64,000 nt of DNA, from the NCBI RefSeq assembly GCF_058153355.1, contig NZ_CM177019.1, one strand, 5' to 3'. The stretch's first letter is position 1; each line of letters begins with the position of its first letter. A program made the position numbers and the translations under genes. Below are positions 7,771 to 49,681 of this stretch, piece by piece. Below the pieces are notes generated by a model. The model searched no databases and was not told where the DNA came from. It saw nothing but the letters and a program-made list of their open reading frames with translations.

Positions 7771-9357
7771 TTAATGCTCGCGAGTCTGGTGGAACTGAAC
7801 GTCCGGATAACGTTCCTGCGCCAGGCGCAGGTTGACCATGCTGGTAGCGATGTAAGCGAGGTTATCGCCGCCATCAAGCGCCAGTTGGCTTTCGTTCTTA
7901 CGCTTGAACTCTTCGAATTTCTTCGCGTCCGCACATTCTACCCAGCGTGCAGTGGCAACGTTGACTGACTCATACACTGCTTCAACGTTGTATTCGCTCT
8001 TCAGGCGCGCTACCACCACATCAAACTGCAGCACACCAACCGCACCAACGATCAGGTCGTTGTTGGAGATCGGACGGAACACCTGCACCGCGCCCTCTTC
8101 GGAAAGCTGTACCAGCCCTTTGAGCAGCTGTTTTTGCTTCAGCGGATCTTTCAGGCGGATACGACGGAACAGTTCCGGCGCAAAGTTCGGAATACCGGTG
8201 AACTTCATCATCTCCCCCTGGGTAAAGGTGTCGCCGATCTGAATAGTGCCGTGGTTGTGCAGACCAAGGATGTCGCCCGGATACGCTTCCTCAACATGCG
8301 AACGGTCGCCCGCCATAAAGGTCAGCGCGTCGGAGATCACCACATCTTTCGCGGTGCGCACCTGGCGCAGCTTCATGCCTTTTTCATATTTACCGGATAC
8401 CACGCGCATAAACGCCACGCGGTCGCGGTGTTTCGGGTCCATGTTGGCCTGAATTTTAAATACGAAGCCGGTAAATTTATCTTCGCTCGCCTCTACGGTA
8501 CGGGTATCAGTCTGACGCGGCATCGGCGCAGGTGCCCACTCTACCAGGCCATCCAGCATATGATCGACGCCGAAGTTACCCAGCGCAGTACCAAAGAACA
8601 CTGGAGTAATTTCGCCCGCAAGGAACAATTCTTTGTCGAACTCGTTAGACGCGCCTTTCACCAGTTCCAGTTCGTCACGCAGCTGCTGTGCCAGATCTTC
8701 ACCAACCGCAGCATCGAGATCCGGGTTATTCAGCCCTTTAACAATACGGACTTCCTGAATGGTGTGACCTTTACCGCTCTGATAGAGATAGGTTTCGTCT
8801 TTATAAAGGTGGTAAACGCCTTTAAACAGCTTGCCGCAGCCAATCGGCCAGGTGATCGGCGCACAGCCGATTTTCAGCTCGTTCTCAACTTCATCGAGCA
8901 GCTCCATCGGGTCGCGGATATCACGGTCAAGTTTGTTCATAAAGGTGAGGATCGGCGTGTCGCGCAGACGGGTAACTTCCATCAGCTTGCGGGTACGATC
9001 TTCAACACCTTTTGCGGCGTCGATAACCATCAGGCAGCAGTCCACCGCCGTCAGAGTACGATAGGTATCTTCCGAGAAGTCTTCGTGCCCCGGGGTGTCG
9101 AGCAGGTTAACCAGGCAGTCGTGATACGGAAACTGCATCACAGACGTAGTAATGGAGATCCCACGCTGCTTTTCCATCTCCATCCAGTCCGACTTAGCGT
9201 GCTGGTTGGAACCACGGCCTTTTACTGTACCGGCAGTCTGAATGGCCTGTCCGAACAGCAGCACCTTCTCGGTGATGGTCGTTTTACCGGCGTCCGGGTG
9301 AGAAATAATTGCAAAGGTTCTTCTTTTCGCTACCTCTGCGGCCAAAAGGCTTGTCAT
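7771..9357 (-). CDS. prfC: peptide chain release factor 3 (hybrid: first ~16-21 codons supplied by the prophage)
   Basis: GTPase motifs [20 protein letters not shown] and NKLD; start ATG at 9355-9357 reads [15 protein letters not shown], whereas the displaced host version [16 protein letters not shown] is found at 48839..48913. Confidence 0.9.
9296..9309. repeat. prophage attL core (14-bp identity ATTATTTCTCACCC on the prfC coding strand)
   Basis: Identical 14-mer at 48848..48861; flanking prfC-homologous sequence diverges on one side and phage/host sequence on the other. Confidence 0.7.
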
Positions 9358-9374
9358 AATTGTTGTCTCTTTGA

Positions 9375-9395
9375 TTATGTACAATCATATGTACA
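9375..9395. repeat. integrase arm-type site cluster (TTATGTACAATCATATGTACA)
   Basis: 20/21 identical to 48664..48684; further (A/T)TGTACA copies nearby on both arms; both lie inside the prophage ends. Confidence 0.55.
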
Positions 9396-30689: not shown

Positions 30690-31214
30690 CTACTTCGTCA
30701 TCATTTTACTAAGTTCCTGAGGAGTCAATTCCCATGTAATAAACCGAGAAGACTCCAAAACATCATCTTCTCCGAGCAAGTATTTACGTATATTCTTCAT
30801 GAAGACCCTATAATCTGGGGCATCATTCTTGTGCGACAGAATTTTAGACAATTCCGTTGCTAGATCAGCTGGTAACCATAAAAAAGCCTCATTTGTTAAT
30901 TGTCTTAATCTTTTTCTGTCATAGGGATTTGTCATCCATTCAGACATAAGCTCGGCAATTAATGCCGACTTCATTCTTATCTCATGTTGCCTTTTTTGCT
31001 TATCCAGAATAACAGTGTTTGCTGTTTTTATTGTTTCAAGCATAACATCGTATTCATGCTTGACTGCATTCTGCACAGTGCTTTGTAGCCAAGTTCTCCC
31101 AATAAAAAACATTAAAGGGAGTATTACAACCCAAGCGATTACATTTGCTATCCAACCAGCGTCCATATCTATCCTCATGAAAATAAAAATGATTAACACA
31201 CAAGCTGTTAGCAT
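30690..31214 (-). CDS. hypothetical membrane-anchored protein, AT-rich cargo gene
   Basis: 174 aa; two N-terminal hydrophobic helices followed by a charged soluble domain; clearly lower GC than neighbours; no family recognised. Confidence 0.6.
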   Translation of the reverse strand: MLTACVLIIFIFMRIDMDAGWIANVIAWVVILPLMFFIGRTWLQSTVQNAVKHEYDVMLETIKTANTVILDKQKRQHEIRMKSALIAELMSEWMTNPYDRKRLRQLTNEAFLWLPADLATELSKILSHKNDAPDYRVFMKNIRKYLLGEDDVLESSRFITWELTPQELSKMMTK

Positions 31215-43291: not shown

Positions 43292-44116
43292 ATGTCTCAG
43301 AACTTAGACGCAACCGCAATTAATCAAATCCATGCCCTTATTTCTGCTCAGGGTGTTAATGAAATTATTAGTAAGATTGGTGCCGATGCTGTGGCATTGC
43401 CTGAGAATTTCCGCATTCATGATCTGGAAAAATTTAATTTAAATCGCTTCCGTTTCCGTGGTGCGCTTTCCACTGCCAGCATCGATGACTTTACCCGTTA
43501 TTCTAAAGATCTTGCAGATGAAGGCACCCGCTGCTTTATCGATGCCGATAATATGCGTGCCGTCAGTGTGCTTAACCTGGGTACTATTGATGAACCAGGT
43601 CACGCAGATAACACCGCCACTCTCAAACTGAAAAAGACAGCACCGTTCTCTGCTCTGTTGTCTGTTAATGGCGAGCGTAACTCCCAAAAGTCACTGGCAG
43701 AATGGATTGAAGACTGGGCCGACTACCTTGTGGGCTTTGATGCTAATGGTGACGCCATTCAGGCAACCAAAGCGGCTGCGGCGATCCGTAAAATCACAAT
43801 TGAAGCGAACCAGACCGCTGATTTTGAAGACAATGACTTCAGCGGCAAACGCTCCCTGATGGAGTCTGTCGAAGCGAAGACCAAAGACATTATGCCAGTG
43901 GCATTTGAATTTAAATGCGTTCCGTTTGAAGGCCTGAAAGAACGTCCGTTTAAATTACGCCTCAGCATTATCACTGGCGATCGTCCTGTACTGGTTCTGC
44001 GCATTATTCAGCTGGAAGCGGTGCAGGAAGAAATGGCTAACGAATTTCGTGATCTGCTTGTTGAGAAATTTAAAGACAGCAAAGTAGAAACCTTTATTGG
44101 TACTTTCACCGCCTGA
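43292..44116 (+). CDS. YfdQ-family protein (DUF2303-like)
   Basis: 274 aa, the same length as CPS-53 YfdQ; part of a YfdP/Q/R/S-like gene set. Confidence 0.6.
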
Positions 44117-44243
44117 TTTCATTACTGCAAATGCCCCTGCGGGGGCATTTATGGAAACATAATTTACTCAATAATCGCCGGATGGTGAGGGCTTCCTTTT
44201 ACCAGAATTCAGCGCGGTGCAGCGCATATACGTGGAGAACAAA

Positions 44244-44780
44244 ATGTCATTTATTAAAACTTTTTCCGGGAAGCATTTTTATTATGACAAGATAAATAAA
44301 GACGACATCGTTATTAACGATATCGCGGTTTCCCTTTCAAATATCTGTCGCTTTGCAGGGCATCTTTCACACTTCTACAGCGTCGCCCAACATGCGGTGC
44401 TTTGCAGCCAGCTGGTACCGCAGGAATTTGCTTTTGAAGCGTTAATGCATGATGCAACAGAAGCATATTGCCAGGACATCCCCGCACCACTGAAACGACT
44501 TCTTCCTGACTATAAACGGATGGAAGAAAAAATAGACGCCGCAATCCGTGAGAAATACGGGTTACCCCCAGTTGTGAGTACGCCCGTGAAATATGCCGAT
44601 CTCATCATGCTGGCAACCGAACGCCGCGATCTCGGGCTTGATGATGGCTCTTTCTGGCCTGTACTGGAAGGCATCCCGGCAACAGAGATGTTCAACGTGA
44701 TTCCACTGGCACCGGGTCATGCCTACGGGATGTTTATGGAACGTTTTAACGATTTATCGGAGTTACGCAAATGCGCATGA
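44244..44780 (+). CDS. HD-domain 5'-deoxynucleotidase (YfdR-like)
   Basis: ORF 44217..44780; start MSFIKTFSGKHFYYD gives 178 aa; HD-like residues (HAVLCSQ...MHDATEAYCQD). Confidence 0.7.
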   Translation: MSFIKTFSGKHFYYDKINKDDIVINDIAVSLSNICRFAGHLSHFYSVAQHAVLCSQLVPQEFAFEALMHDATEAYCQDIPAPLKRLLPDYKRMEEKIDAAIREKYGLPPVVSTPVKYADLIMLATERRDLGLDDGSFWPVLEGIPATEMFNVIPLAPGHAYGMFMERFNDLSELRKCA

Positions 44781-45133
44781 ATGTTTTCGAAATGGAAGGG
44801 TTTCTTCGCGGGAAATGTGTACCGCGAGATCTGAAAGTGAACGAAACAAATGCTGAGTACCTGGTACGTAAATTCGACGCGCTTGAAGCTAAATGTGCGG
44901 CACTGGAAAACAAAATAATACCAGTGTCAGCTGAACTGCCACCAGCAAATGAAAGTGTTCTGTTATTTGATGCTAATGGAGAAGGCTGGCTGATTGGCTG
45001 GCGTTCTCTCTGGTACACCTGGGGACAAAAAGAAACCGGAGAATGGCAGTGGACATTTCAGGTCGGGGACCTTGAAAACGTCAATATCACTCACTGGGCA
45101 GTAATGCCAAAAGCACCGGAGGCTGGAGCATAA
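44771..45133 (+). CDS. hypothetical protein (YfdS-like)
   Basis: 120 aa; overlaps the upstream stop. Confidence 0.5.
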   Translation: MRMNVFEMEGFLRGKCVPRDLKVNETNAEYLVRKFDALEAKCAALENKIIPVSAELPPANESVLLFDANGEGWLIGWRSLWYTWGQKETGEWQWTFQVGDLENVNITHWAVMPKAPEAGA

Positions 45134-45912
45134 TGACCACATTTACCAATAAAGAACTGATTAAAGAAATCAAAGAACGAATCAGCAGCCTAGAGGTTCG
45201 AGACGATATTGAGCGCCGTGCTTATGAAATTGCTCTGGCATCGCTAGAAGAGGAGCCGGTGGCATGGCTGCATTCAGAAAATGGCTTAGGTATTCCGGCA
45301 ATAACGAGGTGTAAAAACATTGCTGACAGTTGGTTATCAAAGGGCTGGTATGTTCAGCCGCTATATATAGCCAAGCCAGTGCCGGTAGTGCCAGATGCTC
45401 GTCCGTCTTTAAATAATGGCATAGTCGGTTTTGATGAAGGCTGGAACGCCTGCCGCGCCGCCATGCTTCATGGTGCCGAACCTGTAAACCAAACTTACAA
45501 GTCACCACACACGCAGTTTGAACAAGTTGCTGACCTCTACGAAATGCAATTTGATGACGGTCGCACTTGTGCCTTTCACACTGATGCGCAAAAGGCTGCG
45601 CAATGGCTTCAGGTGTGCGACGGAAACAGGGTTCAGGAATACGTTAAGCTGGAACGGCTGCAGAACGCGCTGTCTGGCAACTCTCCGGTAAGTCCGGGTG
45701 GTTGGATAAGCTGTAGTGAGCGAATGCCGAATGATAAACAGTATGTTTGGTGTTGGGGGAAGTCTTACGGCTGGACTGAGTGCGATACCTTCGAAGGGTA
45801 TTATGATTGGTCGAGAAACAAATGGTGGGCAGTTACTGACAATGAGGAAGAACAGGCATCGAAAGTAACCCACTGGATGCCACTACCGGAGCCGCCGCAG
45901 GAGGTGAAGTAA
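45133..45912 (+). CDS. hypothetical protein with Trp-rich C-terminal domain (DUF551-like)
   Basis: 259 aa; C-terminus WISCSERMPNDKQYVWCWGKSYGWTECDTFEGYYDWSRNKWWAVTD. Confidence 0.5.
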   Translation: MTTFTNKELIKEIKERISSLEVRDDIERRAYEIALASLEEEPVAWLHSENGLGIPAITRCKNIADSWLSKGWYVQPLYIAKPVPVVPDARPSLNNGIVGFDEGWNACRAAMLHGAEPVNQTYKSPHTQFEQVADLYEMQFDDGRTCAFHTDAQKAAQWLQVCDGNRVQEYVKLERLQNALSGNSPVSPGGWISCSERMPNDKQYVWCWGKSYGWTECDTFEGYYDWSRNKWWAVTDNEEEQASKVTHWMPLPEPPQEVK

Positions 45913-46106
45913 TGAACAACTTAATGACAACTAAACAAGTCGCCGATTTCTGTGGTGTTTCAGTATCGACAGTTCTTCGCTGGAACAGCGTAAACAGGAG
46001 AACTGGTCAGAAATATAGGCCTGACTTTCCAGATCCTGATATTAAATCCTGCCCAAATAAATGGGCATCACACAAGATTTACAGATTTGCGGGAGTGATT
46101 GAGTAA
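45912..46106 (+). CDS. excisionase/AlpA-like HTH protein
   Basis: 64 aa; TTKQVADFCGVSVSTVLRW helix-turn-helix; located near the integrase. Confidence 0.6.
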   Translation: MNNLMTTKQVADFCGVSVSTVLRWNSVNRRTGQKYRPDFPDPDIKSCPNKWASHKIYRFAGVIE

Positions 46107-46388
46107 TATGTATTAGCTTAGATGTGAGCTGACACATCTATGCTTAGATGCCAAACCTAATCTGAGCGTCCACTCTTTACCAAGAGCGGACGTTACCAAT
46201 GACCATATGACATGAATCGATAAGATCAAAACATTATCACCAAGAAATGTCATACCATTGATACAAATAAAATTGATTACCCCCTTACTCTTGTTGAAAA
46301 GTTAGTCGTAGAGTACCTATCGCAATGTAATCAGCTTTAATCATCTTAAAATTACTCCTTAAAAATTAGCTTTTATATACTGAACAAA

Positions 46389-47108
46389 TTAAATCTCTGT
46401 TTCTTTTCCTGCTCGGCTCAACCAATACTCCATTGTTTGAGTATGAATCTTTTCAGCGTATATTTTATCAATTAATTTATCTTGTTTTTCTTTAATGACT
46501 TCACGCAGTGAATCATATAACATAAAAAAACGTTCATCATCTTCCTCATTATTACCGTAATTTATTTGATTGAGCTCTGAAAAAATATGATAGTACCTTT
46601 TCTTCTTGGTCCCCGGCAATATTAAAACCAAGCCACATTGATCATATTCGAATTCACCTTTATGGGCAGCAAAGTTATGTCTAACATTCATAATAGAATC
46701 ATGTAAATCTCTGTATTTTTCTGGCACATGCTTTCTCTGCAATGTGAATCGACGCCCTTTCGCCTCTGTAAAACACTTACCGTAAGTAACAACTTTTGAT
46801 ATAAATAAAGACTTTAATATTAGATTCTTTTCTAAATCCGGATAAATAAAGTGTTGTTCTTTATTAATGTTATTACAAATGTTTTTTATTATATTCTCCC
46901 AACCAATAACATTCCGAAGATCTTTATCAAGCAACTGTAAGGCCACATATTGTTCTACAAAGCGGCCTTTTAAAGGTATTCGTGGTAATATTACACCTTT
47001 CTGCTTATAAATTCTTTCTATCGTATTATCTGGATATTGGATCTTCCTTATTTCTATTCCGTCTTCTTCTGATACCCTTACTAATGGTTCATTTTTTAAC
47101 TTTGACAT
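46389..47108 (-). CDS. hypothetical protein, AT-rich cargo gene between xis and int
   Basis: 239 aa; markedly AT-rich relative to flanks; own intergenic regions on both sides; no family recognised. Confidence 0.6.
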   Translation of the reverse strand: MSKLKNEPLVRVSEEDGIEIRKIQYPDNTIERIYKQKGVILPRIPLKGRFVEQYVALQLLDKDLRNVIGWENIIKNICNNINKEQHFIYPDLEKNLILKSLFISKVVTYGKCFTEAKGRRFTLQRKHVPEKYRDLHDSIMNVRHNFAAHKGEFEYDQCGLVLILPGTKKKRYYHIFSELNQINYGNNEEDDERFFMLYDSLREVIKEKQDKLIDKIYAEKIHTQTMEYWLSRAGKETEI

Positions 47109-47394
47109 GTTAACCCTCTTAAATAAAAAACTAACTTTATCCAGATAGTGTCCGTTAAGAAGTTTTCGTTACAACTAAGTTTCTAGGTAAATCATGAATC
47201 GACCTATAGTATCAAAAACATTTGGTGGTAAACATCTGCATTTATCAAATGGCAGGAGCGATTTAGGGGCATAGGGATAGTGATGATATCGATACTCGCC
47301 CCCCTCTTATGTCAACACAATGGCGTAAACTTAACGCTCACATCTCGCTCAAAGTGTGCTAGGAGATTTGGTTATGTTCAGGTGATACAAACCG

Positions 47395-48618
47395 TCAGTT
47401 TGAATCAGAGATAGTACAATTAACAATCGATTCAACCCTCTTCCACCATGCCAGGTAAGCTTTACGCTGTTCTTCTAGATAATCGCTCTTATCATAAACT
47501 TGCCATACCCCTGGCAGCTTATGACCAAGCATAATTTCTGCGATATGAGGCGCAGTAAGATCAGAAAAATTTGTTCGAGCTGTACGTCTCAAGTCATGAA
47601 GAGACCAATGAGGGAATTGATATCCTAAACACCGCCATGCGTACTGCATTAAATTGTAAGGCAGCGACTGCAATGATGTCCGACCAACGGGTTCCCTGCT
47701 TCCTTCCTTAGTAAAAAGCATATCGGAACCATTGTTCATAGAGATAGCGTACTTTATAAGCTCTTCAACCGGTTCAATAATGGGCCGCTTTAGCGGTTCG
47801 CCTGTTATCTCCCCTGTCTTATGTCGTTCTGGTGGTACAGTCCATACTTTATTAATGAAATCAAAATCGTCCACCCGGGCGGTAATTAGCTCTGAACTAC
47901 GGCAACCAAAATGCAGCAATAGTTTAATGAAGGCCCGGTATTTAGGAACCATTCGAGAACCATCGATCGCAGCATAAAGGATTTTAATTTCATCATGTGT
48001 CAGAAACCGTTTCTTCTGACCTTTACGGATATCCATATCTTTACCCGTGATATCCGACAGCGGGCGAGTTTCAATGAGCTTTCTCTTATACGCCCAGACA
48101 TGGGCCTGCTTTGCGTTAATTAGCAATCGGTCTGCTATTGCTGGAGTCTTAGTGCTAAGAGGCTCCAGGACTTCTAACCAATCATGCAATGTAGCTGCAT
48201 CGTGAGGGATATTCCCGATTTTAGAGAACAGGTGCAGCTCAAACGAGCGAAGTATCTGTTCAGAACCTTTTTTATTTTTTACACAATATGCTTCATACCA
48301 AGCACGGATCACAGACTCTACCGTCATGGCTTCAGTAGCTTTTCGTTTTTCAGCCTGCTTGACCAATCGTGGATTACGGTTTGACTCGAGTTCACCACGA
48401 AGACGGATAACTTCTTCTCTGGCCTCTTTTAATCCAGTTGCCGGGTAAGTTCCGATATCAAGACGCTCACCTTTCCCTGCCCATTGATAACGATATTGGA
48501 ACACTACGCGACCTTTCGGTGATACTCTGACAGACAGACCATCACGATCGGATTTAACCAAAACCTTATCACGTTCCTTTCCAACGACTGAACGCAACCA
48601 CGCATCAGACAGCGCCAT
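47395..48618 (-). CDS. tyrosine integrase (P4-type)
   Basis: 407 aa; C-terminal catalytic region with HDLRRTARTNF and a downstream Tyr; adjacent to attR and the arm-type sites. Confidence 0.9.
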   Translation of the reverse strand: MALSDAWLRSVVGKERDKVLVKSDRDGLSVRVSPKGRVVFQYRYQWAGKGERLDIGTYPATGLKEAREEVIRLRGELESNRNPRLVKQAEKRKATEAMTVESVIRAWYEAYCVKNKKGSEQILRSFELHLFSKIGNIPHDAATLHDWLEVLEPLSTKTPAIADRLLINAKQAHVWAYKRKLIETRPLSDITGKDMDIRKGQKKRFLTHDEIKILYAAIDGSRMVPKYRAFIKLLLHFGCRSSELITARVDDFDFINKVWTVPPERHKTGEITGEPLKRPIIEPVEELIKYAISMNNGSDMLFTKEGSREPVGRTSLQSLPYNLMQYAWRCLGYQFPHWSLHDLRRTARTNFSDLTAPHIAEIMLGHKLPGVWQVYDKSDYLEEQRKAYLAWWKRVESIVNCTISDSN

Positions 48619-48663
48619 TACTCACCTTGTACAAATCGCAAAACACCTCTGCTGTTTTGTACA

Positions 48664-48684
48664 TTATGTACAAGCATATGTACA
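48664..48684. repeat. integrase arm-type site cluster (TTATGTACAAGCATATGTACA)
   Basis: Pairs with 9375..9395; additional TTGTACA copies at ~48626 and ~48655. Confidence 0.55.
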
Positions 48685-48838
48685 GATTTTTGATGAAAGC
48701 AAGCTGATCGATTTAAAGTTACATGAAAGAGTTTTCAATTAAAGAAGCTACATAAGCAAATGTATTTAAATGAGTTATATAGCTCAACTTCAATTAACTG
48801 AAAGGATTTTGAAAGAGTAAAAGAGCTTTAATTTGGAC

Positions 48839-48913
48839 TTAATTATTGGGGTGAGAAATAATGGCAAAAGTGCGGCGCTTCGCCACCTCTTGCAAATAAG
48901 GAGACAACGTCAT
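48839..48913 (-). pseudogene. prfC: orphaned original 5' end of prfC (24 codons) displaced by prophage integration
   Basis: Minus strand reads ATG ACG TTG TCT CCT TAT TTG CAA GAG GTG GCG AAG CGC CGC ACT TTT GCC ATT ATT TCT CAC CCC AAT AAT TAA = [24 protein letters not shown]. Confidence 0.85.
48848..48861. repeat. prophage attR core (ATTATTTCTCACCC)
   Basis: Identical to 9296..9309. Confidence 0.7.
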
Positions 48914-49003
48914 AATTCTTTCTTCTTGAGTAAGCGGCATCGCGCCGCGCTTGTTGAAAACGAAAAATTGCGGCTATTTTACCCATCAACGGGGGGGAGG
49001 CAA

Positions 49004-49681
49004 TCAGTGTTTACACAGGAGCTGCTCCAGTTCGTGCAACGAAGAAACGGTCCAGGTAGGCGCGATGCCTTCTGGTTGCTCGCGATTGTGCGCATTCAGC
49101 CAGCAGGTCGCAAGCCCGGCGTTGATGCCACCGAGAATATCGGACTCGGCAGTGTCGCCAACCATCAGCACGCGTGAACGGTCAGGATTGCCCGCCTGTT
49201 CCAGCGCATAATCGAAAATTTTCTTATTCGGTTTGGCTACGCCAACTTCTTCGGAAATCACCAACAAATCGAAATAATCACGCAGGCCCGTGCGTTCCAG
49301 ACGCACTTGCTGCAAGGCGCTAAAGCCGTTGGTGATGATGCCGATTTTGGCGTTGCCGCGAATGGCATTAAGCAGGGAAACCGCGCCCGGCAGCGGTGTG
49401 CAAATTTCCGCCATCGCATTAATGAAGGCCTCGTTGAGTTTACCTGGCTCGACGTTCAGCCGTTCGGCCCAGCTCTCAAAACGCCCGTGCTGAAGCTGTA
49501 ATGAAGTGATCGCACCGTTTTGATAATCTACCCACAGGGGCTTGTTAACGGCCTGATAGTCCTGAAAATCTTCAGCGGTAAAAGTGACGCTGTAATCAAG
49601 AAACATCCGCTGCAGGCCGGTGAATGAGTCAAAGGTAAACAGCGTTTCATCGGCATCAAAGAAAATCCAGTCCCACTTCAT
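49004..49681 (-). CDS. yjjG: HAD-family pyrimidine 5'-nucleotidase
   Basis: 225 aa, DxD HAD motif (IFFDADETL); K-12 synteny. Confidence 0.9.

Follow-up and report, generated by a model that had tools for sequence, protein, structure and literature searches.

A candidate solo HEPN ribonuclease gene carried as AT-rich cargo between the excisionase and integrase genes of a lambdoid prophage

We analyzed a 64,000-nucleotide stretch of contig NZ_CM177019.1 (NCBI RefSeq assembly GCF_058153355.1), hereafter called the window, in which a 239-codon open reading frame (ORF) with an ATG start, designated ORF239, occupies positions 46389..47108 on the minus strand between the excisionase (xis) and integrase (int) genes of a prophage. 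ORF239 is best explained as a horizontally acquired, single-gene cargo (a "moron") of a temperate phage located at prfC/yjjG. By analogy with HepS, Tha, and AbiV, we favor the view that its product is a prophage-borne solo HEPN abortive-infection ribonuclease (RNase) that acts in anti-phage defense. The evidence that supports this assignment consists of the predicted fold, a conserved motif, the replacement of the cassette by AbiU in a sister prophage, the occurrence of relatives in phage cargo slots, and the score given to the protein by DefensePredictor.

ORF239 is a real, conserved gene because its protein is conserved: the exact sequence (RefSeq WP_000040218.1, the same as UniProt A0A0B1N468) is recorded on 885 contigs, at least 500 relatives were found, and invariant residues persist in alignments of 121 to 148 of these relatives with a mean column identity of 21%. 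The relatives were counted by running HMMER against all 1.84 billion cluster representatives of a 50%-identity library, with at least 500 at E ≤ 1e-3 and 159 at E ≤ 1e-10, nearly all of them 220 to 260 residues in length. Family members were found in Enterobacterales, Acinetobacter, and Vibrio, and they make up 25 clusters in a 90%-identity database. The allele in the window is present in 70 of 5426 complete Escherichia coli genomes (∼1.3%), and the DNA of the region is at least 98% identical in Escherichia phage 2H10 (Glaedevirus), where the gene is named gp29 and annotated "hypothetical protein." Every source labels the protein as hypothetical.

An AlphaFold2 model of the protein was calculated with the family alignment (predicted local distance difference test score, 87; predicted template modeling score, 0.76). 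The model exhibits three N-terminal β strands (residues 9-36), long helices at residues 49-79, 92-111, 130-148, and 188-221, and a β hairpin (residues 157-180) that precedes the fourth helix; as modeled, these helices include the four-helix up-down bundle core by which HEPN domains are defined (PMC3710099). In the alignments of relatives, Tyr109, His136, and Arg143 were invariant, Asp63, Arg119, and His149 were ∼99% conserved, and Lys111, Phe113, Ala148, and Gly151 were at least 90% conserved. Helix 2, the loop that follows it, and helix 3 were the most conserved portions of the protein (column entropy of ∼2.0 bits), with the N-terminal strands, the hairpin, helix 4, and the C-terminus being more variable (∼3.0 bits). 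The codons for the predicted HEPN Rx5H catalytic motif, R143-H-N-F-A-A-H149-K-G151, lie at 46656..46682 on the minus strand, and the motif is located at the C-terminal end of helix 3 (130-148). Across the family the motif reads R-[H/N]-x-x-x-A-H-x-G (Arg143 to Gly151), represented by RHNFAAHSG, RNNFAAHSG, RNTIVAHAG, and similar variants, and residue 144 is His or Asn in all 25 of the commonest variants.

HEPN proteins are defined as metal-independent, usually dimeric RNases with an Rx4-6H motif in which a polar residue (mostly Asn, Asp, or His) directly follows the Arg, together with a second, upstream acidic residue, typically in an Ex3[KR] arrangement, that is spatially near the motif (PMC3710099). 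The position of the Rx5H motif where helix 3 ends and the Asn or His after the Arg match this definition. The family consensus IEKDLR provides a corresponding E61-x3-R65 as a sequence pattern only, and it is situated in the first long helix of the model rather than in "helix 2." On the basis of the model, we consider it very likely that ORF239 has a HEPN-type fold and active site. When the model was compared to AFDB50 by using Foldseek, full-length matches with a probability of 1.00 were obtained to proteins named Cthe-2314-like HEPN (E 1e-17, 32% identity), Apea-like HEPN (E 4e-10), HEPN AbiU2-like (E 9e-9 to 6e-7), and AbiV family abortive infection protein (E 5e-7). The original prediction for this gene, which was made from the sequence of the window, had proposed structure prediction with structural search as a check, and the HEPN-like model with its full-length matches to HEPN-named AFDB50 proteins is the outcome of that check. 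Its remark that no motif could be recognized calls for correction, since the protein possesses an Rx5H motif of the HEPN type that is invariant in the family, together with a HEPN-like fold.

The relationship to named families lies in the fold, as modeled, and not in the sequence. Membership in the Pfam families HEPN_AbiU2 (PF18734), HEPN_Cthe2314 (PF18730), HEPN_Apea, and HEPN_AbiV was rejected by hidden Markov model (HMM) comparison; sub-threshold matches to HEPN_AbiU2 (E ≤ 0.1) were observed for 3 of 121 relatives, with a best value of E 5.6e-3 and none at E ≤ 0.001. A word-indexed search with a 121-sequence profile returned 30 proteins, none of which was Pfam-labeled, and provided no bridge to the named HEPN families. 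Among PHROGs, ORF239 matches only phrog_8440, to which no function is assigned. On the strength of the model, we place the ORF239 family within the HEPN superfamily near the Abi-type clades, as a separate sequence family that is related to them by fold alone. An independent prediction points in the direction of defense: WP_000040218.1 is listed in Table S10 of the DefensePredictor study as a "predicted novel defense gene," with a mean log-odds of 9.62 (range 6.3-11.6) from predictions over 3,000 E. coli strains (PMC13092281). The same source gives the protein no remote homologue among known systems, and the protein does not figure in the consulted lists of tested and validated systems (PMC13092281).

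The location of the gene was examined by searching complete E. coli genomes with a 3.6-kb region that runs from a DUF551 gene as far as int; the slot alleles described here are a sample of six (five other E. coli genomes and the window) and not a census. The left anchor of the slot is the 64-residue excisionase (45912..46106, plus strand; phrog_1553, E 4e-36), which converges on ORF239, and the right anchor is the 407-residue tyrosine integrase (47395..48618, minus strand; phrog_1, E 8e-74), which is upstream of ORF239 on the same strand. At five yjjG-site loci with other cargo, the integrase was 96.5-98.8% and the excisionase 95-100% identical in amino acid sequence to those of the window. 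Homology to these sister prophages stops at 46165-46200 on the left and restarts at 47344-47413 on the right, which delimits a variable cargo cassette of ∼1.2 kb (46200..47390, GC content of ∼0.32) that holds a single ORF, preceded by ∼286 bp of DNA belonging to the cassette and followed by ∼190 bp. In strain 4114, the cargo is a 566-residue AIPR protein (L007:1554-3254, minus strand) that is identified by PADLOC as AbiU (E 5.8e-111). Two of the loci carry a 331-residue hypothetical protein on the strand opposite to that of ORF239 (L008:1689-2684 and L009:1690-2685, both plus strand), and another carries a 413-residue hypothetical protein (L010:1286-2527, minus strand); neither protein has a PADLOC match. 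Strain A1_181 possesses a restriction-endonuclease-like gene along with a gene for a 313-residue protein with a weak match to RTasHEPN (L011:883-2748, plus strand; E 5.8e-4). The latter protein was considered as a possible member of the ORF239 family and found to be unrelated (hhalign probability of ∼0.2%).

ORF239 is thus interchangeable with the known abortive-infection gene AbiU at this slot, and the slot fits a prophage defense and cargo hotspot in which genes turn over between two conserved phage genes and a known defense system is included. Because prophages with the same int and xis carry unrelated cargo, ORF239 is dispensable for integration and excision. The DNA of the gene is also of distinctive composition. 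Its GC content is 0.315, versus 0.509 (standard deviation of 0.053) for 44 other ORFs of the prophage (z ∼ -3.7), and the GC content at third codon positions (GC3) is 0.271 versus 0.530 (standard deviation of 0.089; z ∼ -2.9). Equally AT-rich 720-bp segments account for 0.5% of all such segments in the 64 kb, and the minimum of the whole window falls in the ORF239 locus. The gene is flanked by spacers of 282 bp and 286 bp.

These results agree with most of what had been proposed in advance for the gene. The 239-residue ORF is present on the strand opposite to the early-left operon, whose plus-strand block (43292..46106) converges on it; the flanking regions, estimated at ∼280 bp, measured 282 and 286 bp; and the claim that the gene is far more AT-rich than the prophage backbone withstood the composition-based attempt to overturn it, given the GC and GC3 z values. 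The int-proximal position had been called a cargo hotspot, which is borne out by the swapped cargo (AbiU, the restriction-endonuclease-like pair, and two hypothetical proteins) in five E. coli genomes, and the suggested comparison of allelic content at the xis-int junction uncovered the same int and xis with differing cargo that includes AbiU. The proposal that the gene is cargo rather than a phage housekeeping function was upheld, as no recombination directionality factor or Int accessory protein was found to be homologous and a separate excisionase is present.

Relatives of ORF239 also occur as lone genes in cargo positions of other mobile elements. In P2-like prophages of Enterobacter, Yersinia, and Citrobacter, a homologue (38-41% identity) is the last gene, positioned right after int and next to host DNA; these homologues are on the repressor-int strand and either overlap int by 17-20 nucleotides (two cases) or are 35 nucleotides away. 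The same after-int arrangement was observed on four IMG/VR contigs. In a Providencia P2-like prophage, the homologue resides in the gpQ-gpA interval, between the portal/ogr genes and gpA, and this interval is the old/tin defense hotspot of P2 (Rousset et al., PMC9122126). An E. coli plasmid record includes a lambdoid phage (L022) that encodes a relative between the Rz and HNH/terminase genes, a Vibrio inovirus (a filamentous phage of 10.9 kb) carries another, and a further relative is near an integrase in a different mobile region. A recurrent arrangement on IMG/VR contigs (L039, L041, L044, and L045) places the relative on the same strand as umuD-umuC-like genes, 40-400 bp downstream of them, and in Pantoea (L026) a relative is beside umuC remnants; the umuDC-linked relatives, including those on the four viral contigs, exhibit 46-86% identity. 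In the six viral contigs that were measured, the gene greatly exceeded the surrounding DNA in AT content. No partner gene was common to the contexts examined, and the neighbors differed in each.

The Acinetobacter relative is common (291 blocks of the collection) and is the last gene in a same-strand cluster of four (L023:3773-6735), none of which has a Pfam match; this cluster could represent a multi-gene system. The adjoining gene encodes a 220-residue protein that was considered as a paralogue of the relative and found to be unrelated (hhalign probability of ∼0.2%).

Several copies of the ORF239 allele are interrupted or altered. The copy in NZ_CP182374 (L020) is broken by an IS3 element inside the ORF, the copy in NZ_CP116067 (L018) has an IS1 element at or near its 3′ end, and in NZ_CP151000 (L019) an IS1 element is just 3′ of an intact ORF. 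An IMG/VR sequence (L043) was initially taken for a diverged allele with 63% identity in the same slot; it is really the ORF239 allele, whose central part is out of frame. The disrupted copies may mean that ORF239 is costly, or the AT-rich DNA may simply draw insertion sequence (IS) elements.

A number of observations weigh against ORF239 being a HEPN RNase of anti-phage defense. No experimental evidence of any kind exists for the ORF239 family, and the HEPN names on the AFDB matches are automatic annotations. Foldseek comparison to the Protein Data Bank (PDB) yielded no structure at E ≤ 0.001, and searches of the PDB with the family profile identified no related sequence, with only chance matches (bacterioferritin and uteroglobin fusions). 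In Pfam, no significant match was found for ORF239 (E ≤ 0.001; none below E 0.03) or for the 24- and 121-member alignments; NCBIfam gave no match at E ≤ 1 for ORF239 and none for 10 distant members; and PADLOC-DB v2, which includes ApeA and the HEC/PDC candidates, contained no family matching ORF239 or 10 distant relatives at E ≤ 1. Hotspots of this type carry non-defense cargo as well (PMC9122126). Finally, no convincing sigma-70 promoter was identified upstream of ORF239, and no intrinsic terminator was identified on either side of the gene, including the xis-ORF239 interval.

The fold and motif would fit equally well with a HEPN-type RNase that has no defense role, acting either as a prophage-stabilizing toxin (addiction) or as an RNase in the service of the phage, adjusting the RNA of host or phage in lysogeny or induction. 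Toxins of toxin-antitoxin systems are numerous among HEPN proteins (PMC3710099), and the inactivated copies (IS3 in L020, IS1 in L018, and the frameshifts in L043) would fit a costly or toxic gene. We nevertheless regard this explanation as rather unlikely: there is no antitoxin, given a cassette without a second ORF and no conserved partner across contexts, and the exchange of the gene for AbiU and other cargo in sister prophages argues against a core phage need. In keeping with the former point, a HEPN-MNT or other two-gene toxin-antitoxin module was tried as an explanation and rejected in a test for an adjacent partner.

The protein could instead be a non-catalytic helical bundle in which the Arg/His motif binds a ligand or a protein, serving as an anti-defense factor, a regulator, or a lysogenic-conversion or host-fitness factor. 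This proposal has to contend with an Arg and a His that are invariant at fixed spacing and at the exact HEPN position with Asn or His after the Arg, with full-length Foldseek matches specifically to HEPN-annotated Abi-type families, and with the high DefensePredictor score, and we judge it improbable. What would recommend an accessory factor for integration or excision (a recombination directionality factor or an Int cofactor) is position only, between xis and int in the window and directly after int in the P2-like relatives, two of which overlap int by 17-20 nucleotides. A bona fide excisionase is already present, prophages with the same int (at least 96.5% identity) and xis (at least 95%) have unrelated cargo in place of the gene, relatives far from any integrase exist, and no DNA-binding fold or homology was detected; a role of this kind is therefore hardly credible.

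If ORF239 is a solo HEPN defense RNase, a working mechanism can be outlined. The protein would be made in the lysogen, either from its own 286 bp of upstream DNA or by read-through from int, and it would be catalytically silent. The P2-like relatives sit in the repressor-int transcription unit, and ORF239 lies downstream of int. An infecting phage would supply the trigger, which for HepS and Tha is a structural protein, and this could plausibly bind the variable N-terminal strands or the hairpin. The triggered Arg143/His149 site would then act as a metal-independent RNase that cuts tRNA, mRNA, or rRNA, and RNA cleavage would lead to cell arrest and aborted infection, with protection of the lysogen population and the resident prophage. 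On induction, early-left transcription could run antisense through ORF239 and lower its expression, which is speculation; such read-through is possible because no terminator was found between xis and ORF239. In a more elaborate version, which we think unlikely, ORF239 would be a distinct solo sensor-effector. Here, the N-terminal strands and hairpin would form a direct phage-protein receptor that gates the HEPN RNase, the active site would be unusual in being extended (Tyr109, Arg119, and His136 in addition to Arg143 and His149), and the resident prophage would be spared by early-left transcription that passes through xis and antisense into the gene, a protein-free counterpart of Tha/Ith.

The sequences around the gene were inspected for regulatory features. 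A Shine-Dalgarno-like AAGAGGG is recognizable at 47114..47120 on the minus strand, 5 bases before the ATG of ORF239. Upstream of the gene, the spacer shows no unusual degree of structure (z -0.59), and the xis-ORF239 spacer (46107-46395, minus strand) folds more stably than shuffled sequence (z -3.27). The latter spacer contains a hairpin at the left cassette boundary (46167..46190) with a stem of 10-11 bp, GTCCGCTCTT-GGTA-AAGAGTGGAC as given for the minus strand, and a longer hairpin at ∼46195-46257; both lack a U-tract. The RNA of the xis transcript might be processed or retroregulated at this structure. An Rfam scan of 45800-49100 returned no match. Opposite the 5′ half of the gene, most homologues have an open antisense frame of 40-140 codons, whose starts and lengths are not conserved; it is probably a shadow ORF. 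A Tha/Ith-like antisense gene over ORF239 was considered and is unsupported, since these starts and lengths vary among homologues.

The prophage is a prfC/yjjG lambdoid phage, Glaedevirus-like and 98% identical to phage 2H10. The excisionase gene is the last gene of its plus-strand early-gene block (43292..46106), and the host genes yjjG, rimI, holD, and rsmC are found past int. When 48601-49010 was compared to the first 20 kb of the window, the longest exact match was a 14-bp direct repeat, GGGTGAGAAATAAT, at 9296..9309 and 48849..48862 (plus strand for the latter), which is the candidate attachment site (att) core; the right prophage end adjoins yjjG. This repeat suggests a prophage extent of ∼9.3-48.9 kb, or ∼39.5 kb. 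The insertion would be at the 5′ end of a minus-strand ORF (7771..9384), which is taken as prfC by inference from its gene neighborhood, with the other end beside yjjG. The DUF551 gene before xis (45133..45912, 259 residues) includes ∼160 bp (45503..45662) that is absent in phage 2H10 and the sister prophages, where the protein has 206 residues. A second AT-rich orphan gene (30690..31214, minus strand; 174 residues, GC content of 0.37, no PHROG match) lies between the lysis and HNH/terminase genes. The slot of this orphan holds a 27%-identical relative of ORF239 in another phage (L022); kinship of the 174-residue protein itself to the ORF239 family was ruled out (hhalign probability of 0.2%).

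HepS, Tha, and HEPN-AbiV are precedents for prophage or Abi HEPN defense that have experimental backing, and HepS provides the best working model for ORF239, by analogy. HepS of the Salmonella prophage Gifsy-1 (STM14_3211, of solved structure) is a solo HEPN abortive-infection protein that forms an inactive tetramer; once activated by a siphovirus tail-tip protein, it cleaves the anticodon loops of tRNA (PMC13043305). HepS and the predicted ORF239 product are alike in being single HEPN proteins with a canonical R...H motif, encoded as accessory cargo of temperate enterobacterial phages with no partner or inhibitor gene; the motif is Rx4H (Arg100-His105) in HepS (PMC13043305) and Rx5H (Arg143-His149) in ORF239. 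No sequence relationship between the two was detected, in that the family profile matched no PDB chain at E ≤ 10 and HepS was not among the top structural hits, with the presence of a HepS entry in the searched copies being unconfirmed. The ORF239 model has an N-terminal β region and an inserted hairpin. The second comparison is to Tha (Tha-1 and Tha-2) of Staphylococcus aureus prophages, an int-proximal HEPN RNase that is activated by tail proteins and restrained on induction by the antisense gene ith, formerly annotated as xis (PMC11087260). Tha has 301 residues and a C-terminal HEPN domain with the motif RNSIMH (Rx4H; PMC11087260), unlike the 239 residues and Rx5H motif of ORF239. No conserved equivalent of the overlapping antisense ith was found over ORF239, which has probable shadow ORFs only, and the hosts of Tha belong to a different phylum from those of ORF239.

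The closest structural neighbors are AbiU2 (PF18734), Cthe_2314 (PF18730), ApeA, and AbiV, on the basis of Foldseek values of E 1e-17 to 5e-7 to proteins so named. Like ORF239, the Abi-type HEPN families comprise standalone proteins of ∼190-260 residues with an Rx4-6H motif. RNase activity has been reported for HEPN-AbiV (bioRxiv 2024.05.05.592566). The canonical motif His is usually missing from AbiV (PMC3710099), whereas it is 99% conserved in the ORF239 family. The slot itself resembles P2 old/tin and other prophage hotspots, which are small loci of ∼1-5 kb with high turnover between two conserved phage genes and known defense systems (PMC9122126). In comparison to those hotspots, this slot is anchored by xis and int and has AbiU as one of its alleles, and that paper does not describe the prfC/yjjG xis-int slot. 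A concrete xis-int cargo slot is now defined for prfC/yjjG prophages as a source of further candidates, and its 331- and 413-residue alleles are defense candidates in their own right. If its function is confirmed, ORF239 would represent a compact, single-gene anti-phage RNase family of 239 residues that was missed by the Pfam, NCBIfam, and PADLOC profiles, and it is cheap to test. Prophage-encoded solo HEPN defense is not a new principle, being already established by HepS and Tha; ORF239 is an uncharacterized sequence family of this known solo-HEPN kind, already flagged by a machine-learning screen.

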